A stretch of 64,000 nucleotides of DNA from Elsinoe ampelina (GCA_010093995.1 ML992515.1:177533-241532), one strand, 5' to 3'; shown: positions 1 through 29,067, numbered from the stretch's first letter. The notes: generated by a model not told the origin, from the letters alone. A program made the numbers and translations.

Positions 1-1427
1 GCATGTGGTATGATGCGCCGATCACGTATCCAGAAGTACGACGCAGTCTCATGGCAAATTTGGTCCGATACAAGTTGCAGTGCTACCCGTGTGGATAAGG
101 GACCGAGGTCTCGCACGAGGATTGCCTTGATCCATGCGTGCACACAAGAATGTACGCTGTAGCCTTTCGACGCTCCAGCGAGTGGCTCTGTGCTTGAGGT
201 CTCAGCAAGACCACGCTCGCATAGTATGTGCATGACCTGATTGAAAGTGAGCTTGTCTTTAGTAGCAAGCCCCAGCCACGGGAGGTCGTTCGGTGCAGCT
301 GGCTTCAGTAGCTCGTACCAGATATCGTCGTTCTCGAGTAGCCCCCAAAAGGCCAGAATATCTACACAGGCTGGATTCTCCGATCGTAGCTGCTGGAGTG
401 TAATGTCGCAAGTGCCGCCTACAGTCTTCTCTTCGGTAGTCAGGAGGTCGCTAGTCACCGCATCCAGCCTTTCCCACGAGCTCCGGTAGAATTGCCGGTA
501 CTCAGCAAACGTGACAGCCTCTTGCGTCAAGTAGGTTCCTGCTGTAGCCAGAGCCAGGGGTAGACCATCTAGATCCTCCACCAGAAGCCTCGCATCTGCG
601 TCATACATCACCTCCCGGTCCCGCCCGGACGCATGCATCAACAGCTCCAACCCTTCTCTTGCGTCTGCCAACCTCCCGAGATCTATCCGTGAATGTCCAA
701 GAAGAGTCTTACTCCTCGTCGTAACCAGAATCTTCCCCTGCACACCCCCAGGAAGCAGCGCCCCAAGATCCACCCCATCTTTACCACCCGCCTTCACTCG
801 ATCCAAATTATCAACAATCATCAACCACCCCTCATTTCCCTTCCTACTCAACCAACCTTTCACACCTTCCACCGCATCCACCTCCGGGCCCAGCTGCAAG
901 TCCCGATATACCCTCGCCACCCGCGACCGAATCACAGCATAGCTTCTCGCGACCGCCGCATCGTCTCTTGCATCTACCCATAGTACAGCAGAGTACTCTT
1001 CATGATAGCGTCGCGCATACTCGCTCGCCAACTGAGTCTTACCTATTCCCCCCAGCCCACGGACGACGACCTGCACCCGACCAGGCTTTTGAAACGCATC
1101 GTGGATGCGAGCGAGCTCGTTCCCGCGGCCGACGAAGCGGGAACGGGGGAAGGCATGGGGAAGCTCGAAAGGGAGCTCGAAGCTGGTGGGGGTTTGAGAT
1201 GCGAGGTACGCTGCATTGGCGTCGCCATACGAGGCATAGCTGGTTGGCGGGGCGCCGTAGAAGCTGGAGATCAGCCGTGGTCATTGGCGTGTAGATCAGA
1301 CGTACTTGTTGACAAAGTTCAAGGGGCCATTGTTGGTCTGATTGGTGGCGAGATTGGAGATGTGGCCGTGGTTATCAGTGCGGTGCGTGGTCCCGGCGGG
1401 CGGCGGTGGTGGAGTGGAGGAGGCCAT
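1..1427 (-). CDS. Fungal NLR (NB-ARC), 3' part outside the window; paralog of the adjacent NLR
   Basis: Manual translation: ATG 1427, exon 1 MASSTPPPPPAGTTHRTDNHGHISNLATNQTNNGPLNFVN, 42-nt GT-AG intron 1305-1264, then FVGR..EL, Walker A RGLGGIGKTQLA, Walker B WLMIVDNLD, ILVTTR, LDGLPLAL, DDIWYELL, VHSCVHAW. The frame is open to position 1, so it is missing from the ORF track. Confidence 0.9.
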
Positions 1428-1474
1428 GCGTCTCAAAAGACAGCATGATTGTTAGTGGTCCGATCGCGTAGTTT

Positions 1475-1506
1475 TTACATCGTCAGAGCCGTTACATCGT
1501 CAGAGC
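1475..1506. repeat. 15-bp direct repeat TTACATCGTCAGAGC x2 just upstream of NLR1
   Basis: Two identical copies at ~1475-1489 and ~1492-1506. Confidence 0.8.
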
Positions 1507-2406
1507 GGTATGAGCAGTATTGAAGACGCCTAGAATGGATAGATTTACAAGCCATCAAGCGTAGTAAGGAGTGTATTTAACATCTCAGCTCAGCGCTGAG
1601 GAGGGGGTGAGGCGTCCAATGATCGGCCTCAGCACAATTGGTTGGCACTCGTCGTCGCCATTGGAATACCGCCAATGCTGACAAAGTGGAATAACTATCA
1701 GATGTGCACGACAACATCCATTGCCGCCGATCTCGTATTGTCCTCTCAGAGATGGGAACACTCAGCCTTCAAATGGTCATCAGGCGATTAGGTGTCAGCT
1801 AGTGTCGCTTGCACTTGAGCAGACCGGACACGTGTGTGTATCTCCCAAGTGTTAGGTCAGTTCCGTGGTATTCGACGCTCAGGGGCGAGACAATTGCATT
1901 TTCATTAGTGTCGGACAGATAAATTTGAGTCGACTGCACTTCAATAAATCCCAAGCTTGATCCTCAGTAAACCGACCTGCGACTACCCAAATCAATCCCT
2001 CATTACGGCTGGCGGTGCTCTGTGAGTCTGCATCGAGCCTACTCAAGCTACCGATTCTTTGACAACACATAAGCAACGGCATCTCTCGGAGCATGAAGAG
2101 TGGCTGCTTCGCCGTAGTGTAGAGAGCATGGAGGCTTCACTGCCCCTGCCCACGACACAGTCGTTTCACCTACAAGGATATGGCAGATCACTTGTTGTGC
2201 CGTGGTCACCGCAATGGTCTCGAGCATGTCGATCAGCGGGTTCCTGACTGTTTAGCGTAATCGGAGCGGCGACCTGTCATTCCCACGCAGCGTCTCCCTG
2301 TAACACTGCCGATGAGCAACGCTTCAATACCATCCATTTCTAATGACACGACCACACCTCCCACACAGTTTATCGTTCAACATACGGGCGGGCGGACACG
2401 TCGCTC

Positions 2407-4920
2407 TCACGTCGGTGACGTGTTCGAATGCCAATAAGCAGGAGAGAAGTCGTCAGGAAGATAGCGGCGGCGCAGAGAGTGGGAAGGGGCCGGTGGTCCG
2501 AGACTGGTCCTTCGAGGCCGTTTCTCGGGGAAACCGTGGTGCCGATCCATCAGTGTGACCGTGACGGAGGCCTTCCTAGGATATCCAGGAAGGTACGACG
2601 CAACAGTGGCATGTTCATTGGCGAAACGAAATTCTTTGTCTGTAGATTCTAGTAGCGCATTCTTGCATTGGAAGATTTGCTTGCGTATAAAGGGTATGAT
2701 GCCGGGAATCGTTTCCCCCAGGTCTTCGATCATTTCTTGTGCTTGCTGAAGACGACTTATAGCTGTGATGTGTTCTTCTTGTTTGGCACAAGTGACTCCT
2801 ATGTAGACTTGTGCGACTATAGTCCATCGATTGCGAGTCCCGAAGATGGTGCGATACTCCTCAAAGCCCCTTCGATAGATCCTCTCAGCTTCGGCATAAT
2901 GACCCTGTGCCCGATAAAGCTTGCCGAGATTAAGCAGAGTACCAATCGTCCTTGGATCCGAAGGTCCCAGAGTCTGTTGCTGCATTGCAAGGGCTCTGAC
3001 GAGTAACGATTCGGCAGGGCCGTATTCCTTCTGTACGTGAAAGACGTTGGCGAGATTGTTCATCGCCCCAAACGTGTAAGGATGTTCTGGGCCGTAGTGT
3101 GACGAGCATATATCCAGTGCAGAGATCAGATACGTCTGAGCAATTTCTATGTTGCCGGACTCTGTATACGCACGGCCTAGAGCCTGTAGAGCGCGATTGT
3201 CAGCATCAATAGAGACAGGGACGGACTCAAGTTGGAGTCTCAGATGCTGAAGAATCTCGATCGCTTCATCGGCGCTTCCCTGCTCGAGCTTGACGGTTGC
3301 TAGACATCTGACGGCTCCCAGAGTGCGACCATCATCAAGCCCATGTTTCCGCATAGATGCTGTCGCAGAAGCTCGAAAGAAAGCAGCGGCAGCCACAAGG
3401 TTGCTGTTTCGATGAAACAGTGCACCGAGTCTATAGAGCTGACCAGGATCTAGAGTGAGCTCAGGAAGTGTGTCGGTGAGAAGTTCCCATAGACGCAAAG
3501 CGTGCGCAAATATTCGACGTTGTCCTATCCAAAAGCCTGGCGATGAATCCGGCAGAATTTGTGCAGTGACTAGTGCCAGGGCTACATGAATCATGCCCTC
3601 TCGTAGCTCTGGTTGGATACCATGCGCAAGCCACGCATGTACGCAATTGTGGATGGCGAAGCCTTGAAGCTGATTCGTTGAGTTATCAGCGCTCTTTGTC
3701 TCTATCAGACCATGCTCGCTCAGCACACGAAGGCACTGCAGGAATGACAGCTCATCCTCCACAGCCTGTTCGAGCCACTTGTACCCGACCAACGTAGCAG
3801 GCGGCTTCACTAGCTCGTACCAGATATCGTTGTTATCGAGGAAGCCACATAGTACCAATAAATTTGCGGCTTGTGGGTTTTGCTGTAAGATAAGATCAAA
3901 GGAGATATTCCAGGTAGTATGGAGTGTGCGATCCTCGTAAGTCAGTATCCTGGGACCGGAATTGTGAAGCCTCGCCCAAGAACTCCGGTAATATTGGAGA
4001 TACCGGGCAAAGCTAACATTTCCCTGCCGTAGGAACGAGCCAGCTGACACCAAAGCCAAGGGCAATCCGTCCAGCTCCCGCAACAATTGTTCGGTCTCGG
4101 TCCCCTTGACATGGGGCAAATGACGATCCGAAGCTGCCGCAAGGATCTCCAGTGCCTGTTCATCACTACTGATCTTCTTTAGTCTGATCACGTGCGTGCC
4201 AGAGATGTGCGATGCTCGAGTAGTCAAGATAATCCGTCCATGTGGTCCGCATGGGATGACTTCTTTGAGATCTACGGTATCACTCGATGAGGTGTGCGAC
4301 AACTTGATCAGATCCAAATTGTCAAAGACCATGAGCCAGCGACGATTTGCAGCCCTGTTCAGCCAAGTATGGACAAAGGCCACCGGATCGTCTTCATCGC
4401 CGCCCGGAGAAGTAGCTGGCGAATCACGCTGGATTTTGTTCTTGATGGCAGCGTAGTCGTGGCGAACAGTGATCATGTCTTTGGCGTTGACCCAGAACAC
4501 CGCGCTATACTCGGTGTGGTATGTCTTCACATACTCCCGGGCCAAGGCTGACTTTCCAATCCCGCCTAGACCGCGGATGATCACCTGGGATCTTGACGAG
4601 GCTTGAAGAGCATGGTGAAGCTCACGTAGCTCTTCATGCCGACCGACGAATGGATTACAATGTACGCTCTCGGGTGAAGTGAGAGGTATGTCGTAGCTAA
4701 GCTGAGTATCGGATCTGATGCGGATGGGACGAATCGCCCGCCTGTCAGAAGATTTACGGCTCTTCAATCCCGCTTGGAATACTCGGTGACTGGCAAAGAT
4801 GATCGGCCCGTTGTTGATTTGTTTGGCAACCAGATTGGAGACAGATCCGCGATTGATGGTACTGTAGGGTGCTTCGTCACCGGCTTCATGCTCGGTCGTC
4901 GTCTGGGACCTGGCCGCCAT
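2407..4920 (-). CDS. Fungal NLR: NB-ARC plus C-terminal TPR repeats
   Basis: First ATG at 4920. Motifs RGLGGIGKSALA, WLMVFDNLD, IILTTR, LDGLPLAL; TPR-type repeats GPEHPYTFGAMNNLANVF and GPSDPRTIGTLLNLGKLY. Confidence 0.93.
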   Translation of the reverse strand: MAARSQTTTEHEAGDEAPYSTINRGSVSNLVAKQINNGPIIFASHRVFQAGLKSRKSSDRRAIRPIRIRSDTQLSYDIPLTSPESVHCNPFVGRHEELRELHHALQASSRSQVIIRGLGGIGKSALAREYVKTYHTEYSAVFWVNAKDMITVRHDYAAIKNKIQRDSPATSPGGDEDDPVAFVHTWLNRAANRRWLMVFDNLDLIKLSHTSSSDTVDLKEVIPCGPHGRIILTTRASHISGTHVIRLKKISSDEQALEILAAASDRHLPHVKGTETEQLLRELDGLPLALVSAGSFLRQGNVSFARYLQYYRSSWARLHNSGPRILTYEDRTLHTTWNISFDLILQQNPQAANLLVLCGFLDNNDIWYELVKPPATLVGYKWLEQAVEDELSFLQCLRVLSEHGLIETKSADNSTNQLQGFAIHNCVHAWLAHGIQPELREGMIHVALALVTAQILPDSSPGFWIGQRRIFAHALRLWELLTDTLPELTLDPGQLYRLGALFHRNSNLVAAAAFFRASATASMRKHGLDDGRTLGAVRCLATVKLEQGSADEAIEILQHLRLQLESVPVSIDADNRALQALGRAYTESGNIEIAQTYLISALDICSSHYGPEHPYTFGAMNNLANVFHVQKEYGPAESLLVRALAMQQQTLGPSDPRTIGTLLNLGKLYRAQGHYAEAERIYRRGFEEYRTIFGTRNRWTIVAQVYIGVTCAKQEEHITAISRLQQAQEMIEDLGETIPGIIPFIRKQIFQCKNALLESTDKEFRFANEHATVASYLPGYPRKASVTVTLMDRHHGFPEKRPRRTSLGPPAPSHSLRRRYLPDDFSPAYWHSNTSPT

Positions 4921-5611
4921 GAAAGGTGCCACGTTGTATCTTCACTACCAGAGCAATGCAGGACGTCTCAATGAGCGAGTCGTCGTGGCGACGATGCTCA
5001 CACAGTCGTCCATATATGCTATGGTGGCGATGGCAGAATGTTGCCCCCGTAAGTATGCGATCACGAGCTACGAGGGCGCAGCGCCTGAGGTTGTGGCGTC
5101 CAACTCATGCATGATCAATTAGGCAAAAGGTGTCTGGCCAATCACATAGGTTCGAGCTGGGCCTAGCAAATACAGTGCCACCGCGTTTTCGCCTCTTGAT
5201 CGCTGTCATTACCGACTCAGTATTATGCATTTGAGCATACATCGAATGGTGCAGAACAGATGGAGTGGTCGAGCAACGACGACAATGAAGCGCTCCGACA
5301 TCGGCAAAGGACAGCCGAGATCTATCTGAACAGCACATGTAGTCAAAACCGGAAACTGGAAGCATAGACAGAGAAGAAAACACCACCACACTCAGCGCTG
5401 GTAAATGCATTGACCCCCCCTCTCCCGAATCTCAAAAAAGACCCAACAGTCTACCGGTATATGACCCTCTCCCGGACCAATGTGACCGTGTACATAGCGC
5501 CCAACTCTGTCGCAAACAAGCCCGTCTCATACTCTGTACAATCTCTCCCTGCTTCATCTCTCCCCCATCATGTCCCTTTTCAGCCTTCCCTGCCTTCCCC
5601 TTTCGTCCTCA

Positions 5612-8600
5612 CTACATAACCTCCACCCCCCTCGCTCCCCCATTAACCCCAAAAGCCCCCTCGTTCTCCTCCAACGGCGTCTCCGGCAAGCTCCTATCCA
5701 ACCTGCTATCTCCAATATCCTTCTCTCCCTGCCCGCCCTCGGCGACCGCACTATCGTCCAAACCCTGCTGCATCGCCTGAGCACTCACAATCTCCGCCAG
5801 GCGCTTCAACCTGGGCGTCTGCAGCCAACTAGGCGTGTACGTCTCCAGAGCCGTGATGACGCGCGGTTCGGCGATCTCGTAAGGGCCAGAATCTTCCATG
5901 TCGACGGCGGGGAGGAGGAGGACGTCTGTCTTGGGGTCGGTGACCCGGGAGGCGACGGCTTTCATGATTTCGCCGTTGATGGGCTGTTCGTAGTCTGCTA
6001 CGAGGTATTGGTTGAGGAGTTTTTGGATTTGGTTAGGGGAGAGCCTGGGGGAAAGAATGTCAGCACATGTTTCGATATGGTCGGAAAAAAATGAAAGAAA
6101 TGTGGTCAATGGCGAGCAAGCAGCGAGCAGCGGCAGGGTGAGCAGTGAGCAGGATCTAGAAAGAAACATGGTCAGCACTCACATCCAGCAAATGTCCTGA
6201 ATGATCTCAATGTCATTCAATGTCGCCTTCTTCAACTGCAGCAGCTTGGTAGCCTGCATGAGGTGCTCAAGCTGGAGCGTTCCCTCAGGCATGTCATGGC
6301 TCTTGCACCATTCTTCTATCCTGGTGATGTTGTAGTTGATCTGCAGACCGCGCTTCCAGGAAAGGAAGTTGCGTCGCATGAGCAGATCGTTGAATGCAGT
6401 AACACCGACAAGGCGGAGGAGCTCGGTGATGGTCTGAGTGATGATGCTGTCTTCAAGGTAGAACGCCTTCATGGCTTTGAAGACGTTGTTGAGGAGAGAG
6501 AGCAGGTTGTCCATGCTGAACGCTGGGGTCTGGTTGCTCTGCAGCAGCTTGCCGAGGAATCTGTTAGATTCGTTCGTGACGAAGCCGGGTAGCGACTGGC
6601 TCTCGATGATGGCCGGGACGATCATCTTATGCAGCTTCTTCTTCAATACCTTCATCCAAGTATGGTAGATGTTGAATTCCAGACTCTCCAGATCATGCTT
6701 GACAATCTCCAGCAGGCGGTCGTACTCGAAGTTATCTGTCTTTTGTGCCTCATACCAGTCTTCAGCGAGGAACACAAACGACAGCATCTCGTGCACATTC
6801 GATAGCCAAAAAGCACCAGGGTTGACTGCTTCATCGCCATCATGAGCCATGACCTCTTGTTGTATCGACTGCATGACATTGGCGAGGAAGCGTTCTGACT
6901 CCTTGACGAAACCATTATTCCACATTTCCGACGTGACGAGATTTATGAGGTACGCAGGGAAGAGGACCTCCTTATCCGTAGGTGGCGGCGATGTACCAGG
7001 GGCTGGGATCTTCAGATTTTTGATCAGGCCAAGAGTCACCTCCTCGTTCAGACCATCCTCGTCAGCCAGGATATTCTCGAGTTCCATCTCAACGTTATTC
7101 GTATCAGCACCAAATGTAGTGCCAGACAATGTCTGCGGATGTACGCCATTGGCGCCCCACATCATCGACACAGGACGAGGGTTGAAGCTGCCGGAGAAGC
7201 GATGGTCGGTATCGATCTTTTCGAGCTGGGCGGATCTCCTCTTTGGCTTCTTCGCAGAGACGAGGTTGATGAGACCGCTGGCTTGGTTGAGACCACGATC
7301 CGCACCGTTTGTCATCTCGCCATTGACGGGAGCAGCACGCTTGGCCAGCTCGAGCTGATCCTGCAGCTCTGCCAGCTGTTGGCGTAATGACAGCTTCTCC
7401 GTCTCGGAAGCGTTTCGGCTCTTGCGTGTCTGCTCGAGCTCTTCGCTTGTCGATCGTAGTGACTCTCGCAGTGTCTTCTCCTCGTCTTGCAACCGCCGCA
7501 TGTTTGCGGTGGACTCTTCGAAGTTGGTCTGTAGACGTGCCATGTCCTGCTCCATCTGCGTGAGTCTCGCAGCATGGATACCAGCCTGGTTGGCCTCGGC
7601 TTGCAGCTCCTTCGTTCTTCCCTCCAACGTCTGTGTCCGCGACCGCCATTGCTTGAGCTGTGCCTCGTAACCCTCGACTTGAGACTTGAGCGCCTTGTTC
7701 TCCGTGCGCATGGCCCCAAGCGCTTGTGTGAGTTCGACGACCTTGTTCTCCAGCTTGTAGGAGATCTGCTTGAGATCCCTGGCCTCTTCTCGCAGACCCT
7801 TGTACGCCTTCCTGGCCGTCTTGCCGCGCCACAGCTTTTGCACGGTCACAACATTCTTCCTGTATTGTCGCCATTGCTTGAGTTGTTGTCTCGATCGCCA
7901 CGTCCGTTGAATCACCCGCGCTGCGTTGCCGACTCTCGTGTCCATGATATTCTTCCTGCAGAGCCACCCCTTGGCCGCCGCTTCAAACTGGATGAGATTG
8001 TTGCGGATGAATATGAACCTCTTGCGCTCCTTTTGTCCTCGCCAAACGCGCTGGATCGTCGTGGCGCCTTTAACGCGTCGCGCTTCTTCAGCTTGGTGTC
8101 TTGCAAAGACGCCGCGAAAGAGAGACTGGACTTGAAGGATGGAGTGTATGGTTTCGAGATAACGCTTGCGGTAGTATTTGGCGCGAAGATTCTTCTGGAT
8201 CATGATTGCGGCTTGGTTGAGGCGGTCTGTCCGTTTGCCCTCCAGGAAAGCAAGCATACCTGCGCGGAAGAAGATCTTTGTCAGACCGAGCTGGTACTTA
8301 TCCGTGCCGTCCTTTTTGCTCTCTCCGAGTGCTCTTCGCAGGATGGCGTCGCACATTTGCTTGATTTCTGGCGTCCATTGTGCTGAGGGCACCAACATGT
8401 AGTATCGCATGGCAAACTCCTCGTATGTCCATCGGGTAGGGTATCCAGCACAACTAATTCTGACAGTCTCGAGGACACCGCAAGCTCGAAGTTGCGACAA
8501 AACCATTGGGCCTTCGAACTTCCATGCCTCCTTGCCTTCGTTTGGCTTGATACATCGGATGTAGTGGACGTCGGTGGAGTTGATCGTGGCCATGAGCTCG

Positions 8601-10793
8601 ATAAGTGATGACTTGAAGATACCTCCCAATGTAGGCTTTCTCGCAGCTGCGGCACCTGGCCGCTTGCCTGGACCAGCAGGAGCGGCAGGTTTCGACGACA
8701 TTGAAGCATTCTCTCGCTCCCGTGCCGCTGTAGCAATCTCAAGCACATCTGACAAGAACTGATTCGAAGTGCCTCTCAGCACTTCGAGATGCTCATCCGG
8801 TACCGTGTCTCTGTTCTTCTCGATGAAGCCCTCGGATTCGTATGTAACATCAATGGCGTAATGACAGACCGTAAAAGCCGACTTGCCGAACCTTGGCTTT
8901 TTGAAGAATTTACTCTTCTCGCTGGCGAAGTTGGTGTAGAGCTTGTTCACAAACGACTCGTCAGATCCCATGGGCAGACGCGATTCTTCGTCCAGGAGCG
9001 CAAGGACACCCATCTTGTTCTCGATCAAGTCGATACACGGCTGATTATCCGAGAAGTCGATGAATTTCCAGTCGATCTGTTCCCGCACGTATTCTTCTTG
9101 CTCAAGCTTGAATACATGCTGATTGAATTCTTGTTGCAGCTTCTCGTTTGCGTAATTGATACAGAACTGTTCGAATGAGTTCTTGGTAAAGTGCTCGAAA
9201 CCGTAGATATCCAGAACACCGATGAAAGATTTCACAGATTCCAGAATTTCAGGACGAGCCAGACTGCTGTTGATCGTGTCGACGAGCCAGTCGAACAGAC
9301 TTGAGTAGATGTATTTGGCGACTGAATCTCGGACCACGATCGCTTGAGCCTGGGACAGATTTGACATTATCTTTTCGCCTCGGGTGATGAGCTGTTTCTT
9401 GACGGTCCATTTCGCAAAGTTGTCCGCGCTGATCCCGAGAAGCCTGCATGCCTTGACCAGAGAGGGCTCGTCGGCTGCAAGTTGAGAGTCGGTTCGCGTG
9501 GCAGCGATCTTGATGTTGCCGATATGGAGGAGCGCGGCAAGGATCTTGAAGATCTGGGCTTGTTGATTCACGTCAACTCCAATCCTCGTCAAGGAATCTC
9601 TTGTGGCCTGAAACTCTGCAGCGTCGTCCACTCCAACAATTTGCGCATTGCCTCCTTGGTTCATGTACTCGAAGTGCTCTACGGGTACAAGTCCAAGCTC
9701 TTCACGTTCTGCGTCCGTGGCGCCCGCAATTAGCTGGTAGAAGATGTGGTAGTTCCTCTCTTTCAGTGGCTGGAAGACCAGACGTGATCGTTCAAGCAAG
9801 TACGTTCGTATCCGCGCGCCGATGATGTCCGTCTTTTTGTCAAACATGATCTCGATGTACTTTCCGAAACGTGAAGAGTTGTCATTACGGGTCGTTTTTG
9901 CATTACCGAATGCTTCCATGATAGGATTCGTGGCGAGGATCTGTTCTTCGGTCTCGCTCATGGCGTCTGCTCGTCCTTTGGCGCGGCCGCCGGGTTGATC
10001 TGGTGATTCTCGGGTCGCAAAATATCGCATGATGTATTTGGCACTGACTGTCTTGCCGGCACCGGACTCGCCTGAAACGACGATTGTCTGGTTCTGGCCA
10101 TCGCGAAGCATGTCACTGAGGAGTCGTCAGTCTCTTTCCTACTTGATCATTCTCGCGAGGGGTGTAGGCTTACGCAAATGCCTCTTCCGCAATTGCAAAT
10201 AAATGCGGTGCTTGCGATGCTCTTTGCTTTCCGGCGTAGACTTGTACCATGCCTGGCACATAGAGGGAGTCGACCCGAGCGAAAGGATTGGTAGCGATGA
10301 GGACGATACCGGAGTAAGTGTAGATTTCTTTCTGGGCATAGCGTAACTTGATGGCTTGTAATACTGGGGAGTGTTAATAGTGTTTCTGATATCTCTCAAG
10401 CCCTTTCCATACCAGCAGGTTCATTAAGATGCGATAGATTCGTAAGATCGTCACTGGCTTCAAGCATAGCAGGGTTCATCAGCGGCGGGAGGGTGGTATC
10501 GTTATCATCCTGGAGGGTAGTGAGGGTGGTGACGACCTCTTTGGTCTATTCTCAATTAGAATCTGATACGTGGCTGGCGAGTAATCCATCTTGTCGCATA
10601 TCTCGCCCCGGTATAGACGTGTTGATATGCAATCGGCTGACGGGTCATTGGAGCTTACCTCGCCATTCTCCAGCTGGAAAACCAGCTTGACCTTGTCACC
10701 CTCGACACGTTTCTGCGTGACCTCGGAGGCCACCCATCCCTCGTTGACGTCTGGTTGCCAGGCGCGCGTGCCGACATCGTAGGTGTGCGCCAT
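5612..10793 (-). CDS. MYO2: Class V myosin (motor, IQ motifs, coiled coil, DIL domain), multi-exon
   Basis: GESGAGKT P-loop, NDNSSRFGK, DIYGFE, IQ repeats, DIL region (WKRGLQINYN). Start MAHTYDVGTRAW at 10793; about four introns. Confidence 0.96.
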
Positions 10794-11920
10794 GGCGAGC
10801 AATCAGTCAGAGTTGTGGGCGCTGGAAGTACAGCCTTGGGTCAAAAGGAGTGTGTGTCCATCCGCGGTTGTGGAGCAAGAGATCGTAGTCGTGTCCACGG
10901 ATACCCAAGTCAAAGACGCGGAAAAGTATTACGGCGAGAAGTAAATGCTAGGCTGGGAATGCAAGTAGGGCGTGGGTTGTTTGATGGCGGCCGTTGAGGT
11001 GTGGATTGGATTTCTTGAGGCCAAAGCCGTGTCTGTCAAGTTTGGCTGGCTTTCTCCACGCTACGCCAGGGCCACAAAAAGACCAAACCTGAAGACACCA
11101 CAACACAGACCCGCCGCGGCCAGCATCGTTCAGGGACTAGTGCGCTTGTTCCTCGAGCCCCTTTTTTGCATGCTCTTTTTATCGGGCTGCAGCTACCTTA
11201 TGGTTCTCACGAAAAGATATCTGCTCATGGACAGGAGTAGATAATGCTGCATCTACCACATGCTCAGAACTCCTCAACGGCGACTCCAGTCTACTCAGAT
11301 ACATTATCACTCTTGCCATCAATGGCTTCTTTCCATGGTCGATCAGGCTCGAGCGCCCTCTTACCTAAGCCGCAGCGTCCCATCTCTTTCTCATGCGGCT
11401 CTGCTCTCCCACTCATTACCGATCGTCGCGCTTTGCAATATATCGCACGTGCAGTACCCGCGTCTTGGTCACTTTGATCTCATCTTCGGCCCTCGCATTC
11501 CATCATATTAACTCAACAGCATGTTTTGATACTCAAAAGTCGCGTTCATCCATCATCAAAACGTTCATCGCGAAGTCGCGCCGTTGGACAGCCTCATCTC
11601 CACCGTCCATGCGAACGACGTCCGCCCTCATACCCAGATCTGCCAGCCTTGTAGTCGGAAGAGGCCGAGCCTGATCATGTTGAATCCCTGCATTCATGAG
11701 TAGGCTACTTGACCTATGGCATCTGTGTATACCACACCCGAACAAGGGCAGGCTGAACCCTGTAAACCATTCCCCAGCTTTTGTTGAAATCATTCCACCA
11801 TGACCATTTTGTTGTCCTCCATTCAGCCAGCCAGTTGAACCCGCCCACCCATCCAATCTGCTCATGCAAACGCCCCGATCTGGTATCGATATCTATGCAC
11901 ACTTTTCCAAACATGCAGGT

Positions 11921-13455
11921 CTAGTACAGAACTCTTGTCCTGATCCTCGATCCAAGCTCCTCCAAGCTCTGGTAGAGGTCCTTAATCTCTGCCACGTTGA
12001 CATCGCTAATGTCAGCCATCAGATAGGCTACTTCGCCGCGCGAGTCGGTCATCTGCTTGTCTACGTTGTGGTCACCGAGAATGTCGTTGACGCGCTTCAG
12101 CACACCAGGTACGTTGCGATGGATGTAGATGACCTGGGTATGGTTAGCTTGGGCAGGAGAAATGATCGTAATGCGACTTACGCGAACGTGATTCGGCTCG
12201 TCTTGTGTCAAGCTTCGGAGAGAAACCTCGGGCAGGTTGACCGCGCCTTGTGTGGTTCCCTCATTGACGTACTTGGTCAATGCCTCTGCGACCTCGATAC
12301 CGATCGCCGACTGTGCCTCTTCCGTGCTACCTCCGATATGTGGCGTGAGAATGATATTCTTCAGGCTGCGGAGGTCCTCTGCCCACGAGTTGAGATCGTT
12401 GTGGAAATAGTCGCCGTTTCCACCAGGCTCATTAGGATATACGTCCAGCGCAGCACCAGCGATCTTGCCTGCCCTCGATGCGTTGATCAGTGCTTGAATG
12501 TCGACCACGCTTCCTCTCGAGGCATTGATCAGGTAGCTGCCCTGTCTCATGAGCTCAAGCTGCTCAGCTCCAATCAAGTTCTTCGTCTCTGGCAATTCCG
12601 GCACGTGTAGCGTAACGAAGTCTGCTCCTCGGAGAAGCGCCTCCAGACTTGGTACCTGGTGCGCTGTGCCCATGCTCATGAGATTGATCACATCATAATA
12701 GATTACCTTCATGCCCATCATTTCCGCCAGGACCGAGAGCTGGTTACCGATATGTCCGTATCCTACAATGCCCAAAGTCTTGCCACGGACCTCCCAGCAG
12801 CCGTTCGAGACCTTGTTCCAGACACCTTTGTGCAGCTCATTGCTTCGGTCTCCAAGTTGGCGGGCAAGAACTATAATCTCACCAATGACCAGTTCGGCTA
12901 CTGACCTCGAATTTGAGAAGGGCGAGTTGAAGACGGCGATACCAGCGCTAGCGGCGTACTTAAGGTCGACTTGGTTCGTGCCGATGCAGAAGCAGCCGAT
13001 GACGATCAGGTTCTTTGCGTGCTTCAAGACGTTCGCTGTGAGCTTGGTCTTTGAGCGGATACCAATGACATGAACGTCCCTGGTGCAGGTCAGCCAGAGC
13101 ATACATACGCTACACGGTCCACGTACTTGATCTTCTCAATCAGCTGCTCCTCGGGCAACGAACTCTTAATGGCCTCGACTTGATATCCTTGCTCCTTGAG
13201 CATAGTCTGTCCAACTTTGTTGACATTCTCCAACAGAAGGACCTTGATATCCTGGCTCTGGAAGGGTTTCAGTTGCTTTGCTGCTGTGGCCGCCGCTCCC
13301 TGTGCCCCGCCAAAGCTGGCCATCGGCGAACGCAATGCGACGGGGGAAGTGGAGGAGACAGAGAGATTCGTCGGGTCGAAGCTGTTCGAGACGCTTTGTC
13401 GGCGTCCATGGCCATTGCTGCCATTTCTGACGGGGATATCCTGAGCTCCTGACAT
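11921..13455 (-). CDS. SER3: D-3-phosphoglycerate dehydrogenase
   Basis: KVLLLENVN, IGCFCIGTNQVDL, GIVGYGHIG, TPHIGGSTEEAQ and a C-terminal ACT domain; introns near 13.1 and 12.15 kb. Confidence 0.95.
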
Positions 13456-14042
13456 GGTGTGGATTTGTTGCAGCAAGAAGAGGGGAGGGACTCGAATTGC
13501 TCATCAATTAATGGAAACTTTTTTCGCGTCACAGTCACGCCGATCTCGCTGACGCAAACGTGGGGGTTTTGCCCTGAAACGGAACATGGCGAAAACCAGG
13601 CGAACCTCGTCCAGGCGGCTGCCGAACGATTTTCAGGGACGAGCGAACCCTGCCCTCAGATCCGCACACATCACCGAGCATCATCAAGCGATCTGGTTTT
13701 GACTACTTGAATTCCAGCGATTTTACGCTACATACGACTTTCGATCTCGAAAGCCTTGATCCCCATCCGCCATGCCTACTCCGTCCTCAGATTGGTGCTC
13801 CTCTGTAGTGGGCATGCTAGGAAACCGAAACGAAGAAATCCATCGCCGCTACACGAACGCCGAGTGTGCGTGGGTGTCGAGTGATACGTCTTTGTCGAGA
13901 GAGTGACTACGTGAAGGAGTGTTGGGATGGTAAGATTCCGGGTGACCGGGGAATGGAACCCGAGTGCTGCCGAGCGGATGATCGGAGAGGTGCTGAGGGA
14001 TGAATTCAGGCGGACATGGATATTGAGTTGACTTGAAGTTGT

Positions 14043-15472
14043 CTAGCTCTGTTTGCACTCGGCGGTCTCCTTGTTCGGCTTTGAGCCGTCGCCCTGCTCA
14101 AAGTTAGTGCGGTCCCTCATGGCATGCTGATTAACTTACCTCCTCGTCAGACTCCTCTTCTTCGTCCTCATCTCTGTCAAGGTCCTCATCATCGTCCTCG
14201 TCATCCTCATCCTCAAAGTCATCCTCGTCGAAATCGTCTTCAAAGCCCTGCTCGAATTGCAGAGCCTCCCCAGTGAACCAGTCGATGGCACGAGGAATGA
14301 GCTTCTCCTTGATATCCTCACCGAGCTGGTAGTCGAGCTCGAGCTTGGCCTCGATGTCTTCGTCAATCTCCTCATCCTCATCAGCGGGCGGCTTGGCTGG
14401 ATTGAAGAAATCGAAGAACGATGGTGTCGGGATCGTCTTCTTGACTATACGGGTCTGCTTGGTGTCTGTGAATGTTAGCTAGAGAATGAATGTTGGTGTC
14501 GGTATCGCATACTCTTGTTCCTTTGCTTCTTGCTCTCGACCTTGACGGTGAGATCCTTTCCGGGCTTCCACTCAACCTTGTCGCCTTCAGCATGATCGTA
14601 GATGAAGTCGCCGCCATATCCGCTCTCTTCCTGATAGAAATATGTCTTTGAGATAGACTTGTTGGTGAAGTACTCGTTCTCCTCAAAGTCGAAGATCAGA
14701 CGGAAGCCAGGGCGGTCAAGGTATTCCATGCGGATGTTGGTCAGATGCTTGAGAGCTGCTTCGTCCCGATCGGTAATCGTCTCAGCAAGAGAAGAGTTCT
14801 TCATCGCTGAAAGCCAGAATTCTGGGATACCCTTGGCAGCCTCAGCGCCATCTTCCGCTTTGGTCTCTGCCTTGGTTTCCTCATCCTCCTCATCTTCATC
14901 GTCCTCCTCGCCTGCTTGTACCTCCTCTTCTGATGGCTCGTGTGTACCATTCACGATCTGTGCGCGTTTCTCGTAAAGTGGGCTGTACTTGGCGAAAAAC
15001 TTCTTCTCTAGGGCAAGTACCTCTTCCTGGAACTCGGCCTCGAGCTTGGAGTGCTCCTTCTGGATACCTTTGAGACCAGCAACACGGCGACGGACTGGTG
15101 CTGGTAGGGACTCGACATAACCTGATGACTTTCCGACGAGACTTCCGAGCTTGTTCTGCATGAGCGAGACGAGTTTTGGGTTGGAGGCGAAGATCGATGC
15201 AGCTGCAGCGCGGTCGAGATCCTCTGAAACATTTATTAGTTGTCGTGTTCTCGAAATAGTCGATCATTTTTGTTGAAGCTCACCTTCCTTGATGGAGCTC
15301 ACACCGGGCTGCTGAGCGCGAGAAGAGATTGGCGCATTGTTCAAGGGGGTGTTCTGAGGGGTACTTGTAGCGGTGTCAGCACTTTCACGGATGGCCATGA
15401 CGGGCAGTATAGGTCGAAGCAAACTTACGGTGCGACAGGCGCCTCCCTCTTATTACGGATCGGCTCAGACAT
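14043..15472 (-). CDS. NAP1: Nucleosome assembly protein (histone chaperone), multi-exon
   Basis: [33 protein letters not shown], acidic tail, ends ECKQS* (CaaX-like). Confidence 0.95.
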
Positions 15473-16330
15473 GATGATCTGAGGCGTTGCGTATGGATTT
15501 GTTGAGTGGGATGAAATTGTTGTATGCAGGTGAGGAAGCGCGGTTGGGTTCACTCGCTTTTGCACCACAAGAAGGCGGCTGCAGTCCTTTCATGGGTGAA
15601 AAATGCTGGCCAATCAGATGTGACCTCTGACTCGTCACGTTTTCAGGGACGAGAGACGTCACCTCTCTCTTCTGTTTCACATGCCAACATGCGGCCGACA
15701 ATGGAAGATGGTTTGAAAATGTCCATCTAAGCAAGTGTTCGTCTCTATGTCTCTCACTTGTATGTGGCCGTCCTCGGGGGTTCTTTGCACCTTCACGTTG
15801 GGTACACAGCAACGACACCTCATCTCCAGAACTTGAGACAGCGGTATTTGCCACGAGTGTCGATGTGCCCTTCGGGTTCAAATAGCAGTCTGAAGTGCTT
15901 TGTATAACTGGTAGAGTATCGTATGAGACTAGAGAGACAAAGGTGTATCTCCTAATCAACGTTGATGCCACGAAAAGAATGTCCCTTCCTTTTGCTCTGT
16001 TTGCTTGCTAGTCGGCTGTTCACAAAGAACATGAGGGTCCGGCTACTGTGAGTGAAGTAGTGAGCATCATCTGGACAGTGACTCCCAATGAGACTCCGCT
16101 CTCAAGTCATTGAGGCATGTGAAAAGTGATTGTCGAAATTCAGGCATCCATCCTTCCTCTTCACAGCTATACGATTTCCTCACTTGTCACTTCTGCTTCT
16201 CTCCAACAAACAATTCACACCACGACCTCACCATCGACACTTTCTCGCGCTGCGCTGCTTGCTTGCTCGATTCAACAACTTCAAACACATAGTTATCAGC
16301 AATACTAACAGCATCCTTTCTACAGTCATC

Positions 16331-17122
16331 ATGCCCATCTACGACCCCAAGAAGGTGATTGAGAAGCTCACCGACACCGAGAAGAATCGCGTCATCGCCT
16401 TGTATCTCAGCATCGACAATCCCAATGCCGTCGTACGTGTCAAGGAATACCCCCGCTGCCTCTACATCCTCACGGAGCCTCCTCGCACTCAAATTCACCT
16501 GAAGCCAGTCATCACGGAGCTACCACTTGAAGAAGCACCCGAGCATGCTCAAGCGTTTTCTGCAGAAGTAGCTCCTCTTTATACACGAGTCGTTGACTTT
16601 CTTGCTCAGGTCAATTGGGGCACTGCCACCAAGTTCCTCGGAGGCGCCTCTGAGGACTCCACCCGCGTCTCGCAGCGCAACACCATGAAGAAGCTCAAGG
16701 ATGCGGAGGTCGAGCTTGCTGCCGATGGCACTCCTGTCACCGAGCCCGCTCCACTTGTGGTCAAGAAGGCTGGACCGGTCAAGGGCAACACTGAGGAGGA
16801 TCACGAGAATGATGTTCAAGCCAAAGGCAAAGGGAAGAAGACTAGTGGGGGTCGTAAGCGCAAGGCCAACGATAATGGAGATAACGCTGGTGCTACTGAG
16901 GGCAAGAAGCCCGTCAAGCGCGCTCGTGGCAAGAAAGCTGCGGTCGAGGCTGTCGCCGCTGAAGGTACAGGATGTATTCTCCGCTTACCAATGACATTGC
17001 TAATGAGTGCAGATGAGGCTGATGTGGAGACTGGAGTTGATCAGGATGCCGAGATGGCCGACAACATCGTTGTGAAGACCGAGCCTGAGGTCGAGGATGG
17101 AGACAAGGACGAGGATCTCTAA
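16331..17122 (+). CDS. Small Myb/SANT-like HTH protein A (~188 aa spliced) with K/E-rich tail
   Basis: Exons 16331-16432, 16610-16964, 17013-17122 give LTDTEKNRVIALYLSIDNPNAV|VNWGTATKFLGGASEDSTRVSQRNTMKKL, then a basic/acidic tail. Family call is by pattern only. Confidence 0.7.
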   Translation: MPIYDPKKVIEKLTDTEKNRVIALYLSIDNPNAVVRVKEYPRCLYILTEPPRTQIHLKPVITELPLEEAPEHAQAFSAEVAPLYTRVVDFLAQVNWGTATKFLGGASEDSTRVSQRNTMKKLKDAEVELAADGTPVTEPAPLVVKKAGPVKGNTEEDHENDVQAKGKGKKTSGGRKRKANDNGDNAGATEGKKPVKRARGKKAAVEAVAAEGTGCILRLPMTLLMSADEADVETGVDQDAEMADNIVVKTEPEVEDGDKDEDL

Positions 17123-18042
17123 GCCAGCCACCACACTCCGACGTCCATTCCAGCACCAACAACATCACTATCCATCACCAACGTCAATCATCCCATCACA
17201 CACGCACATAAGCAGACACAAAGGCAACAACACTCATCCACCCACAACCGAGCACATTCAGAACCACCCAACATGCAATCTCTTCGCTTGTCACATTCGG
17301 AGAAGCAATCATGGCGATTTCCATGACAAGACATGGCTTCATCTTCGAGCAATCTCATAGCTAAATCGAGAACTTATCCCAGACGTGTTGCGTGTCCTCC
17401 GCTGTGTCGCATCTCTAGATTGACGCAGCGTGCATCGTGAAGATTACATACTGAGACAATTTGTCAATCGATCACCGAGGCAAGCAAATGCAGATCGAAT
17501 GACAGACATTACAGTACAGTACGTTCTATCCAACAAGCAGTCATGAATTATTCGCTCTTCGGTACAGGGCAATGAGACTTGACCTCCCCATGTTAGTCCA
17601 GCTGTCATTTGAAGCACCAGATTCAGGAGTTGCCTTCACCGCCAGTGTAAGGTGCCGACGAATCGTCCATTACTTTGACCAGAATGGGCTGTGCAGGATG
17701 TCCTATGAATTTGAAGCATACACAATTGATGGTGCTTGCTTCGTGCTTGATTACCAAGATTAGCGAGCATGTGCATGTGAAAAGCCCAATCCTCTATTTC
17801 AGCAAATACCGGGAGATCTTCACTCCTTCACACCTTCGCAGCTTCACCAAACGTCCCAGCTCTTCCCTCTCTGAAAGACGACACAGACATTCCGGTTGGT
17901 GAGACCTATAAGAGTTGATCTTTCGATGACAAGAATACTGAACACATATTGCAGCAAAGATTCATCCACCACCTTACTGAATCACCTCACCTCACATCTC
18001 GAAGTCATATCGGATAGCAGCACATTCACGCTCAAGTCCACC

Positions 18043-18457
18043 ATGGCCGACATAAACTTCACCGCTGGAGAGCAAAAGCTGCTCATGACCATTCTTGCCA
18101 ATCTCAAGGGAGACATCAACGTAGGGACCACGTTCCTCTCACACCACACCTATCGCTGACACTGCACAGGCCGACTGGGACAAAGTCGCCGAGCTCCAGG
18201 GCTACAAAGACGCCAGTATTGCCCGTACCCGCTGGAGCCAGATCAGGCGCAAGAAGATTGACGCAAACGACGGCGATGGGGCAAAGCCTAGTCCTCCCAA
18301 GAAGCGGACCAAGAAGCAGACCGACGAAGAAGATGCCGAAGGAGGTGGCGACGATGGTGAGGGAAAGGCAGTAAAGCCGAAGAAGGGTGGACGAGCTGCG
18401 AAGAAGATCAAGACTGAGATTAAGGAGGATCCTGAGGACGAAGCGGAGTCTGTCTAA
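18043..18457 (+). CDS. Small Myb/SANT-like HTH protein B (121 aa)
   Basis: Exons 18043-18120 and 18170-18457: FTAGEQKLLMTILANLKGDIN|ADWDKVAELQGYKDASIARTRWSQIRRKK, then a K/E-rich tail. Probable 5'UTR intron 17899-17954. Confidence 0.85.
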
Positions 18458-19078
18458 GGGTGCTTAAGGGCCATGGCGATTCTAGCGATTGCGTTCAGAT
18501 GGTCTGCGTGATCCGCTTGAGTGGACTGGACAAAGATTCGGCATTGGCGACTGCAATGTATTGCTACGGGACAGACGATAGCTGAGGCGAATAAGCTAGG
18601 AATGCAACCTTGCTCCTTATCAGCTTCGTTCTGTCGTCTTGAATCTCGACACTCTACAAGGTCAGGAATGAAGCTCGAGGCTGCCTGTCTGCGCGCCGAT
18701 GATCCTTCTTGTGATCGGCGGAAAATGCCTGCCCTGCGTTGCCGCCACTCAGGTATCAGTCAGACCAAAGCCTACCAGCGCGTCGTGTTGGCTTCCTGTT
18801 GGATCAGCATATACCGTGAACATATCATGAGTGATGCAAGCAGCCAGAGACTACAAAAATAATGATATTCAAAGGACAAGGTCGACAACTGTATGTTTAA
18901 GAGGTACAGCATATCACCTCCAGTCTTGGCATCCCGGACCTCATCAGAAATCTCGCCCGCAACCACCACCACTCCATCCCAAACCAACACCAACACAATG
19001 CCAACCCCATAACCCCCGCCTCTACCAGAATACATATACCATCCCCCTCTCGCTGCCCACCGGCGCGATACTCCCAAG

Positions 19079-19399
19079 ATGACCACCCCACTCCCCCGCC
19101 TCCTCACGCTCCTCCGCACCCAATGCACCATCTTCAACACAACCTTCAACCCATCCCGCCTACGCACCGGCAACAAAATCCTACGCCAACGCCTCCGCGG
19201 TCCTGCTATGGCAGCTTACTACCCGCGCCGCATCGCCACGATCAAGGATCTGGCCAAAGCGTACCCCGATTATGAGGTGATTGATGAGGACGAGGATGAT
19301 CGGTTGGAGAATGTGCAGATCACGAAGAGCAGAGGCAAGGGGCCGCCGAAGAAGAAGCGTACGAAAGAGGTGCAGGTTGGGAAGAAGAGGAAGAAGTGA
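19079..19399 (+). CDS. RSM27: Mitochondrial small-subunit ribosomal protein mS33
   Basis: IFNTTFNPSRLRTGNKILRQRLRGP..YYP and RGKGPPKK are family motifs. Confidence 0.92.
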   Translation: MTTPLPRLLTLLRTQCTIFNTTFNPSRLRTGNKILRQRLRGPAMAAYYPRRIATIKDLAKAYPDYEVIDEDEDDRLENVQITKSRGKGPPKKKRTKEVQVGKKRKK

Positions 19400-20788
19400 G
19401 GGTGAGGTTGCACGGGTGTATCGGGGAATGGGAGGCATTGGTTTGCGGAATGGGGTGGAGGCGTTTGGAAGGATCATGGAGAGCTTTGCGAGAGGACTGG
19501 ACGGGCTGGAGAACGGCCGAGAGGGGGCGATCTGGTAGGACGGAGATGTTGAAGGAGGGAATGATAGCTTCTCTGCTCTTCTTCTTCCGAGAAGGAGAAG
19601 TCGTAATGGCCAGGGAGTCATGGGACAGTAGTGGTAGTATCTGGAGATACAGGTCAAAGATTCCGTGGCAAGGGAGAAATGTACAATACAATAATGATTT
19701 AGCTGCTAGCGACACGGCATATCAACGCAGCAGCATGCCTTTGGCTTCGTACGATGGGATCATCAGGGTAGTACCAATAGATCCTGGTCAGAGTCCTCGT
19801 TTTCTGACATAACGAACGGTTCCTGTTTGGTTGATTGGATCGACACGGTGTGACCGGTCTTTATCATTGTCAATCTATGGCGGCAATGTCCCCTGGCCTT
19901 GCACTCGCCGTCTCGTGGCTTTGTCTCTCGACAGTTCTCCTCGCAGCTCTGCACGCCGTCTGTACCAGCTTGTATGGGAGCAAGTTCTATATCATGATCT
20001 TTGTAATCTCTTGCAAACCTTGAGGGCATGTCGTAAGCAGGTTGACCGGCTCATGCTCAGCTCCGGAGTTCCAGTGTCCACATCATCATAAGATGAAGAT
20101 GCTGAGGTACGGCAAACATTTTCATCAATAGTCACGAATGCACTCTGCCTGCTCCCTCCCAGGGGGACCAAAGTGATGATGACTAAGCGGGATCGTTTCG
20201 GCGGACTCAACGACACTACGGACTTTTCTCTTCGGCACCCCTCCACATCCCTTTCCTATCATCCGTTTCTGCATCGCAATGCGTCGAAACCCATGATCCA
20301 ATATCTATGCTTTGTTCCTGTGAAGACAACCTTGAGGGATATGGTAGAGGCGACGTTGCTTCAGGGAATCATTGCGAACGTGATTCCTGACAAGGTCTCG
20401 TGGTGGGATGGAAGTGCTCAGATGGACATGTAATCAGACCGTCGCCGCAAATTGATAGAAGACATCGCTCCCCATCGCGATTCCAATAGTTCTCAGGTGA
20501 GCTGACCCAGGATCCGAGACAACCTACGGTCTGCGATTGGCCGTCGAAGACTTGTCGGCTTGCTTGGTCCTTCTGCGGCGGTCAGCGCAAGCGAGTTCCT
20601 ATGCAGCACTTCTCGGACCCTTGGCAAGTCATCTATCTCCTTCATTCCGACTGTCTTGTGCATAGAATGCGCCATGATGGTGTCTAGGCAAGCCACTTCC
20701 AATTCCTTCGGACGATTTCTGCTTCTTTAAGGTCGGTAGCGCCCTCTTCTCTTATCAATCTATTCTTCAGACAATTTTAAACGTCAAT

Positions 20789-22528: not shown

Positions 22529-23289
22529 TCACGCAGGCATGCACAAGACTGCTGGCGCTTGAGGGATTGGGATATCAGGTGTCTCTGCTGGCACAGTGTA
22601 TAGGGAGAGTTCTGCAGAGGGGTCTACAGCTGTGTCTTCACTACATTCATTTCCCTTCAGATCTACAAGTGCACAGAGATGGGAAATTTGCTTGCTCTAC
22701 AGTTGCGAGGAGAATCATGTTCAAGTGACGGGGAGTGCTGTCCTCCCCCAGTGGTTCGCCTCGGACATGCTGCGGGGAGCCGTGCTCCGGAAGTGACCCC
22801 TTTGGACGGCAACGAGGATCGACATGCACGTTCGGGCGTGAGATGAACATCTCTTCCGCTTACTCAGGCAACAAATAATGGTGTTGTCCTCGAAAGTCGG
22901 TGCTCAAGATGGGTCGAGAACGAGGGCTGCGACGCGAGAGTCTCAGCTCCTATTTTGCCGCCGCACACCACAAGCACTATCAGCAACCGCGCTATCATCA
23001 TGAATAATCATATTATGAGATGCACTATACGTGCTATCCTGGCTGCATTATGTCGTTAAAGGAAGGCGCTCGTACGCTCTGTGAAACCAGACGCTTCATG
23101 GCTCCGAGGCTTCAGCTCGCGAGACTTAGTTTGGTGGCGACTCGGTCTCTGTGGCAATCCTGGCGTGATGAACAGATCCACCATACATTTCCGGATCCGA
23201 TACAGTGCTGCCTGGATCAGTCGTGCTGTTGCTGCTTTGGAGCTGGGTTGGAGCTGCTTTGATAACTGTCGTCACTCCTCTTGACTCTT

Positions 23290-23945
<656 letters not shown>

Positions 23946-24496
23946 TTCGGAGATTCAAAGACCAGATTGATTGACTTGTGAGCTTTCACAAGTACAAGAG
24001 AAATACCCTTCCACTGGACTCAGGTCGAGTCGCGAGTGGGTTGGCGCAGCGCGGGTTCTAGGGGGCAGCAGAGGCTTGTGAGGTGTTCCTGTTGGTGTTC
24101 ATATGGTCGTATAAGCTGTCAAATCGAGTTCAGACCGGCTGGGAGTATGAGTGGGCGATGTAGGGGATGCGATCGTCGTGTAGACTGAGGATTGCAAGTC
24201 GCGAATCTGTAAACACGGGCCATGCGCGTTCTGTGAGCCGCGGTAAGCGAAGATGCGGCTCTGGGAAACGTGGGGAAGAGCCGGAAAGGCTGAAGGGTGA
24301 CGCAGGGTCCTTGAGCCGTTTGTTGTAGATACGTGGACCTTCACTGTCATTTGTCTTCTCATTACTCAACCACTTCCGGATAGATTATCTTTCGTGTCGC
24401 GCTCACTCCTGCTCTTAACAACATCTCCCACCAACTGTACACGTATCCTTCGAACCCGATTCTTCTGCCTACAACTCCGATCACACGAGCTCCAAG

Positions 24497-27229: not shown

Positions 27230-27274
27230 GCAGCATGTGGGGATTAGATGGATGAAATGTAATGTTCAGTGTAT

Positions 27275-28789: not shown

Positions 28790-29067
28790 GTCGTGTATAC
28801 ACCAGTCAATCCCTTGCAAAGTGAAGTCCAGGTCAAGCACCCATCTCCAAGCTTAGTATCGAGCTTGAAACAATCGCGCAAAAGCTATGTGGGTACGACA
28901 AGAAATGCTTCAATGGTTGGAGAAACTTTGAACTCTGGAGCGGAGCAAGCTTCTGACGTCGTCACCTCACTTCACATGCCAACTTCACCTCCCCTCTGCC
29001 ACACCACTACACTAGCAACTCTATACTCGCATACTCTGTCAATCATACAACCCAGCCCATAGCAACC

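Follow-up and report, generated by a model that had tools for sequence, protein, structure and literature searches.

We analysed a stretch of 64,000 nucleotides from Elsinoe ampelina (GCA_010093995.1 ML992515.1:177533-241532; the whole stretch is referred to below as the window), which carries near its left end two tandem genes for NOD-like receptors (NLRs; NOD, nucleotide-binding oligomerization domain), NLR1 and NLR2, both on the minus strand. An earlier note on this DNA had reported that the N-terminal leaders of the two receptors share a short block, and had proposed that the block is an amyloid signalling motif (ASM), a model that needs the same motif on a separately encoded effector. Here we describe the two genes, the block and its distribution, and weigh this proposal against its alternatives.

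Two tandem NB-ARC/TPR receptor genes and their transcripts

The coding part of NLR1 that lies in the window occupies 1..1427 on the minus strand and begins with an ATG at 1427, as deduced from the sequence and its reading frame together with the gene model P0005. Exon 1 (1427..1306), which is evident from sequence and frame, is followed by a spliceosomal intron of 42 nt (1305..1264, GTACGT...CAG), placed by a joint in spliced contigs, and by exon 2 (1263..1), which according to the frame and P0005 continues for about 1468 nt to the left of the window. The intron is in-frame, holds a TGA, and begins two codons past the end of the shared block. The full NLR1 product is P0005, a protein of 950 aa with NB-ARC and TPR domains encoded on the same 653-kb contig, and its gene model reads ...NGPLNFVNNFYGAPP... 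across the inferred splice, i.e. ...NFVNNFYG.... The NLR2 gene (2407..4920, minus strand; ATG at 4920, stop at 2407) is intronless and encodes P0001, a protein of 837 aa that Pfam and AlphaFold2 divide into a leader (residues 1-90), an NB-ARC domain, a helical arm, TPRs and a disordered tail (780-837).

Pfam assigned NB-ARC (35.5 bits, with a cut-off of 23.5), TPR_12 (114 bits) and TPR_10 (84 bits) to NLR2 and NB-ARC (35.1 bits, E 1.1e-8) to the NLR1 fragment in the window, and P0005 has precomputed TPR families. Both proteins thus consist of an NB-ARC domain followed by TPR repeats, and they are NB-ARC/TPR NLRs of the STAND NTPase class. From the linker preceding the NOD onward, NLR1 and NLR2 are identical at 164 of 406 positions (40%; BLASTP, E 4e-100), and they are therefore old tandem paralogues. 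Among the named relatives, the closest is a hypothetical Elsinoe batatas protein (P0004), which is identical to NLR1 at 789 of 948 positions (83%) and is clearly its orthologue. None of the 120 matches listed, those from E. batatas included, was an NLR2-type protein other than NLR2 itself. Since the two paralogues (40% identity) diverged long before the species did and no other NLR2 was listed, NLR2 may be a presence/absence gene.

Contigs of four public runs (X3, X4, X5 and X7, of which X3-X5 represent two studies) were mapped on positions 1..5200, an approach that shows neither strand nor expression level. In contigs of three of the four runs (X3, X4 and X5; two studies), position 1263 is joined straight to 1306. 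The joint omits exactly 42 nt, the ends of which read CT..AC on the plus strand and hence GT..AG on the gene strand. These assemblies therefore hold spliced RNA, and the NLR1 intron is real; the RNA nature of X3-X5 follows from the spliced joint alone, as no run is recorded as RNA. X7 has no contig spanning the intron and is uninformative on splicing. A single X3 contig spans 1568..5012 gap-free and covers the whole of NLR2 with a leader of about 92 nt and a trailer of about 840 nt. The transcript assemblies thus include the motif-coding regions of both genes, and both genes are transcribed.

Only 40 nt separate the start of the NLR1 contig (1527) from the end of the NLR2 contig (1568), so the NLR1 promoter must overlap or abut the trailer of NLR2; the two genes may be subject to read-through or be regulated together. 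On the other side, one spliced X3 contig of NLR1 reaches 3135 nt past the left edge of the window, whereas about 1468 nt would suffice for the rest of the NLR1 coding sequence, provided that it has no more introns. The additional 1.67 kb or so that is transcribed to the left of the window would then belong to a long trailer, or to a gene that adjoins or overlaps NLR1. At position 3689, contigs of three of the four runs (X4, X5 and X7) carry G>T (C>A on the gene strand), which changes Ala411 of NLR2 to Asp. This difference is likely to be a strain polymorphism in the helical arm, in a low-confidence loop at residues 411-414.

A conserved block in leaders that take the place of effector domains

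The NLR1 copy of the block, TDNHGHISNLATNQTNNGPLNF, comprises residues 17-38 (1314..1379, minus strand) within an alignable stretch of residues 14-41. The NLR2 copy, TINRGSVSNLVAKQINNGPIIF, comprises residues 21-42 (4795..4860, minus strand) within an alignable stretch of residues 18-45. The two copies are identical at 12 of 22 residues, as the earlier note had found; its peptides were exact, and its left limits (1373 and 4854) are those of the first conserved N, which lies 6 nt into the 22-mers. The consensus, which covers 22-27 residues, is T-x-N-x-G-x-[IV]-S-N-L-x-x-x-Q-x-N-N-G-P-x-x-F. Read from the sequence, a strand-like segment, x-[IV]-S-N-L-x-x-x-Q-x, lies between two N-x-G turns that are spaced 13 residues apart. 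An N-glycosylation sequon was considered as another way of reading the block and was rejected, the tripeptide NQT being present in NLR1 only.

BLASTP of the two leaders gave 13 identities over 27 residues (E 1e-7). The Smith-Waterman score of the leaders was 67, while shuffled sequences had a mean of 22.5 (S.D. 4.2, maximum 50) and none of 20000 reached 67, which excludes chance similarity. When a profile of the block was run on the window translated in all six frames, the two copies scored 71.7 and 70.6 bits and nothing else more than 7.5 bits, and a regular-expression scan likewise found just these two. The claim that the leaders are unrelated except for one block also holds, save for a homologous linker of about 25 residues directly before the NOD.

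Several observations bear on whether the block has been under constraint. Of the 12 conserved residues, eight are specified by different codons in NLR1 and NLR2, and the nucleotide identity across the block comparison is 49/81; with different codons at 8 of 12 positions, it is the protein sequence that has been kept similar, and recent gene conversion does not account for the likeness. The block is 55% identical, against an average of 40% in the NOD, and the remainder of the leader cannot be aligned. In the two receptors, a similar distance separates the end of the block from the FVGR sequence at the start of the NOD (F38 to F84 in NLR1, F42 to F91 in NLR2) even though the intervening sequence is unrelated, so that this part of the leader looks like a tether of conserved length. 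In the E. batatas orthologue of NLR1, THRTDNHGHISNLATNQTNNGPLNF is identical at 25 of 25 positions, compared with 789/948 (83%) overall, and substitutions start right past it (V39I, A44H, T47P). This identity adds only little, since 5 of 38 windows of 25 residues are likewise identical at 25/25. Taken at the level of the compared sequences, the block has been selectively retained.

An alignment was assembled from NLR2 and 43 matches chosen from the 120 listed (44 sequences). In 39 of the 44 family members, 166-410 residues lie ahead of the NOD, and the precomputed Pfam families among the matches include HET (PF06985), PNP_UDP (PF01048), patatin (PF01734), SesA (PF17107) and hydrolase-type families. 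Five of the 44 have leaders no longer than 97 residues: NLR1, NLR2, the E. batatas orthologue, one protein labelled 'partial', and another whose sequence opens within the linker (17 aa). The latter two look truncated, and among the 44 aligned sequences a short leader with the block is confined to NLR1, NLR2 and the E. batatas orthologue. The large N-termini of the relatives, set against the short leaders found here, indicate that a built-in effector domain was exchanged for a short leader in this clade.

The earlier note had stated that neither receptor has a folded N-terminal effector domain, and two results agree with this. Pfam returned no family for either leader at E<=10, HMMER filters discarding most matches above an E of about 0.1. 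AlphaFold2, run on NLR2 with the 44-row alignment, gave a mean predicted local distance difference test score (pLDDT) of 79.2 and a predicted template modelling score of 0.73, with a confident NOD/TPR helical-repeat body and a pLDDT below 50 at residues 1-71 (about 30) and 780-837. The alignment of the leader is only three rows deep, and its low pLDDT is accordingly weak evidence of disorder. A prediction of a complex of four copies of NLR1 residues 11-50 scored 0.02 (mark, 0.32); it was run without controls and counts neither way.

Comparison with known amyloid signalling motifs

Five fungal ASM families are catalogued in PMC12261475: HRAM, PP, sigma and two PUASM families. The statement that the block matches none of the named families was borne out when the defining features of each were compared with the two leaders, and Pfam, as noted above, assigned the leaders to no family at E<=10.

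The HRAM pattern of 21 residues is defined by a G that never varies at position 19, hydrophobic residues at 5, 8, 10, 16 and 18, R or K at 15, and large polar residues at 3 and 20 (PMC4518210). In a comparison made by hand with the glycine of NNG set at position 19, position 8 (I/V) fitted in both receptors and position 16 (T/I) in NLR2 only, and positions 5 (H/R), 10 (N), 18 (N), 15 (Q) and 20 (P) did not fit. With the first G placed there, the motif would begin before residue 3. The Pfam model of the HET-s prion domain, which we take to be PF11558, did not match either leader at E<=10. The likeness to the NWD2/HET-S system of Podospora anserina and its HRAM1-5 motifs is one of architecture, the effector domain of the NLR being replaced by one short motif at the N-terminus, and of general form, a motif of about 21 aa with conserved N and G (PMC4518210). 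The differences are that neither 1428..64000 nor the database searches yielded a HeLo or HeLo-like protein with two motif repeats, the partner that is usually encoded by an adjacent gene in HRAM systems, and that our receptors have NB-ARC and TPR domains. NWD2, in contrast, is a NACHT/WD40 protein.

The PP core is pseudo-palindromic, NxGxQxGxN or GxQxG (PMC9815663; PMC5485727). The corresponding sequences here, N-H-G-H-I-S-N-L and N-R-G-S-V-S-N-L, have no Q two residues past the G and no second G. The block resembles the PP motif of the PNT1/HELLP/SBP system of Chaetomium globosum and the mammalian RHIM in being about 20 aa long, rich in N, G and Q, and located at the N-terminus of an NLR, but it lacks the core, and an effector pair was not found here. 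The sigma motif has about 40 aa and three-fold repeats (PMC5485727), while the block has 22-27 aa and at most two N-x-G turns. Matches to the sigma models of Pfam, presumably NACHT_sigma and Ses_B, were likewise absent at E<=10. What the block has in common with sigma (Het-eN/SESA/SESB, Nectria haematococca) is that sigma, too, is an amyloid motif on the N-terminal, NLR side.

The PUASM pattern, FxGxGxQxxGxGxF, occurs with PNP_UDP effectors (PMC9815663). It is absent from both leaders, and there was no PNP_UDP gene among 16 open reading frames (ORFs) of the window that were scanned. The PUASM families, themselves recent additions, resemble the block as taxonomically restricted fungal ASMs of 22 aa that occupy NLR positions 20-49, compared with starts at residues 17 and 21 here; they differ in that their NLRs are NACHT or NACHT-WD40 proteins with PNP_UDP partners, 11 of them as genomic neighbours, none of which was found here (PMC9815663).

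A further parallel is provided by 16 amyloid-like motif classes that occur in short NLR N-termini, 11 of which have no neighbours and no effectors (Table 1 in PMC9815663). These orphan classes, like our block, are motifs of 12-30 aa near the N-terminus of an effector-less NLR, have a restricted taxonomic range, and lack a matching copy in a neighbouring or known effector (PMC9815663). One of the 16, NLR34, differs in that the 15 of its 25 occurrences that were covered are in Fusarium NACHT proteins and unannotated Tuber NLRs, whereas the present receptors are NB-ARC/TPR proteins of Elsinoe. In the NLR table of the same paper, all 27 rows for Elsinoe australis are marked 'noasm' (PMC9815663). 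NNGP was not found in those supplementary files of PMC9815663 that were searched, which is a weak negative as the files contain gapped alignments and were covered up to about 4 million characters, and matches to ISNL, VSNL and SNLA in the same supplements lay in unrelated helical domains and were set aside. The block thus lies outside all named ASM families, but a match to one of the orphan classes of PMC9815663 by profile hidden Markov models (HMMs) is conceivable. A full-text literature search, which yielded listings and abstracts, turned up no later paper on such a motif in Dothideomycetes. In the literature so covered, an ASM is unreported in this plant-pathogenic lineage.

Interpretation of the block and search for a partner

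We tentatively favour the reading that the block is an undescribed, lineage-restricted, orphan amyloid-like signalling tag that would act as the output element of the receptors by forming a beta-arch stack. The leader of about 65-75 residues, which is not confidently folded by AlphaFold2 and has the block as its only conserved element, would stand in for the effector domain of the relatives. Ligand-driven oligomerization of the NOD would gather several tags on flexible tethers of about 45 residues, the gathered tags would assemble into an ordered, amyloid-like stack of beta-arches, and the stack would then recruit or template a downstream partner, or the other NLR. This reading is favoured because the tag lies within the first 45 residues, the tether has a kept length, the effector domain is missing, and the composition and the turns are suitable. 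The two receptors have no effector domain and carry a short, N/G/Q-rich motif at the N-terminus, and the length of the block (22-27 aa) and its N/G/Q and I/V composition are within the range reported for ASMs; together these features agree with NLR-side amyloid-like motifs known from fungi and bacteria. The architecture is that through which fungal amyloid signalling motifs were discovered. Constraint on the block, transcription of both genes and the precedent of the 11 orphan classes (PMC9815663) also favour this reading. Of the original proposal, the architecture, the position, the N/G/Q-rich block and its constraint at the protein level have stood up, whereas the searches described below turned up no effector that ends in the motif.

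The search for such an effector covered the window and the databases. Sixteen long, non-overlapping ORFs, chosen from the 121 of at least 120 aa in the window, were scanned with Pfam. They encode housekeeping-type proteins: a class V myosin (adjoining the NLR genes), a 2-hydroxyacid dehydrogenase, a NAP protein, a P450, an S1/P1 nuclease, a cyclophilin, an MBOAT protein, a kinase-like protein, a TCP-1 subunit, an RsmB-type methyltransferase, Sec8, a TPR protein and a giant protein with PAN domains. HeLo, HeLo-like, SesA/B, PNP_UDP and patatin domains were absent among these 16, and the six-frame profile scan showed no further copy of the block in 1428..64000.

A 30-column profile was run with hmmsearch against 1,835,955,588 representative proteins (one protein per 50% cluster, with matches reported from about 35 bits up) and gave eight proteins at E<=0.001. 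These were NLR2 (70.6 bits), NLR1 (65.7 bits) and six repeat proteins, in which 2 to 11 partial stretches were summed; none of the six spans the block in full or resembles an NLR or an effector. When 5.8 billion proteins (80-2000 aa) were searched with a 45-column profile through a word index, which requires shared exact 5-mers, there were 106 candidates, of which the three with E<=10 were the three NLRs. The same type of search with NLR2 residues 1-95 gave 18 candidates, and only NLR2 itself was confirmed. In metagenome scans with NLR1 and with the motif profile, 0 of 303 and 0 of 54 pattern matches were confirmed. A search of the ESM Atlas with NLR1 residues 1-65 gave no usable match, and the 45-column profile had no match at E<=10 among the PDB sequences. 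The HMM scan found no match to the block in the effector domains of the NLR relatives either. A peptide in the linker of the SesB-like homologue P0007, SNGPIESF, was examined as possible kin of NNGPxxF; it varies among relatives (SNEPVASF, SNPEQSF) and was attributed to chance. The profile searches thus showed that three NLRs carry the block, but they produced no C-terminal match in an effector-type protein at the sensitivities reached. Within the searches made, the block is found in three proteins only, and no paired effector of the kind known for ASMs turned up in the databases, the window or the metagenomes.

Several of these results weigh against an amyloid-like tag. ASMs 'work in heterotypic pairs' (PMC12261475), and the validated families came from NLR/effector pairs. 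Here, no effector-type family occurred among the scanned ORFs of the window, the scan of representative proteins held no block-bearing protein besides the NLRs, and the metagenomes contributed none. BASS motifs, which have about 25 aa, are enriched in Q, N, G, V and I and depleted in P and L (bioRxiv 10.1101/2020.01.06.895854); the block contains a Pro and a Leu that are invariant in the three sequences. It also fits no named ASM family. The block family of three sequences is too small for covariation or for a test at the family level, and a pLDDT of about 30 in the leader neither supports nor excludes an amyloid-like tag.

The invariant Leu and the Gly-Pro turn would be readily accommodated if the block were instead a non-amyloid short linear interaction motif, in which a single peptide docks on a folded partner, an adaptor or effector for example, or on the receptor's own TPR/NOD part as a means of autoinhibition. 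We regard this as the main rival and a realistic possibility. Docking could use the tight N-N-G-P turn, and TPR domains commonly bind short peptides. The low AlphaFold2 confidence in the leader would suit such a motif, and a second copy elsewhere would not be expected if the tag is recognised by a domain and not by an identical motif. On the other hand, the N/G/Q richness, length and position of the block are typical of amyloid-like motifs of NLRs, no partner is known for a docking motif either, and the AlphaFold2 model of full-length NLR2 leaves the leader undocked on the NOD/TPR body, although the shallow alignment makes this a weak argument.

A more elaborate form of the amyloid-like reading, in which the block founds a new family of beta-arch motifs with a conserved Gly-Pro arc that wires NLR1 and NLR2 together as sensor and helper by receptor-to-receptor templating, or wires them to an effector of a new type, appears rather unlikely to us. 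It is also unlikely that the block is simply a tag for co-assembly of one NLR with the other, as a sensor and helper pair that mixes in a single oligomer or stack and dispenses with a separate motif-bearing effector. The block was found in NLRs alone, the two genes lie side by side (their contigs end at 1568 and start at 1527) and are present in the same RNA-type assemblies, and orphan motifs have been suggested to join in the assembly of NLR signalosomes (PMC9815663). However, neither NLR has a recognisable executing domain. Moreover, NLR1 of E. batatas keeps the block unchanged while no NLR2-type protein of that species is among the matches listed, so NLR1 seems able to manage without NLR2.

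The confinement of the block to three proteins, and the unexceptional nature of its complete identity in E. batatas, which 5 of 38 windows equal, would be compatible with a functionless ancestral remnant, such as the last piece of a lost N-terminal domain, or with chance similarity. We consider this improbable: the shuffling test speaks against chance, the effector domains of the relatives were not matched by the HMM, and 12 of 22 residues have been kept, eight of the 12 on different codons, in paralogues that are 40% identical in the NOD and otherwise unalignable in the leader. That the block is a divergent member of the HRAM, PP, sigma or PUASM families is highly improbable, as the general N/G/Q richness and an N-x-G-x-[IV]-x-N start that faintly recalls the first half of the PP core stand against unfilled defining positions and the absence of Pfam and PDB matches at E<=10.

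Some other features of the window were noted in the course of the ORF scan. The PAN-domain protein is unusually large: one open frame of at least 3134 aa occupies 54599-64000 (plus strand) and runs past the right edge of the window, with several PAN/apple domains in the first 1134 aa, the part that was scanned. Two ORFs, at 38632-40320 (minus strand, 563 aa) and 16130-17119 (plus strand, 330 aa), had no Pfam family at E<=0.001.

The block is a real N-terminal tag, retained by selection, on two expressed, effector-less, tandem NLR paralogues and a reasonable candidate for a new orphan amyloid-like motif. If it forms amyloid, it would add an ASM family in NB-ARC/TPR receptors of Dothideomycetes, and its conserved proline would broaden the sequence rules of ASM predictors. 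If the amyloid-like reading is true, the receptors would also provide a test case for what 'orphan' NLR tags serve, be it a distant effector, NLR-NLR assembly or something else, a question raised in PMC9815663. If the block is not amyloid, it would mark a different signalling route for effector-less fungal NLRs.

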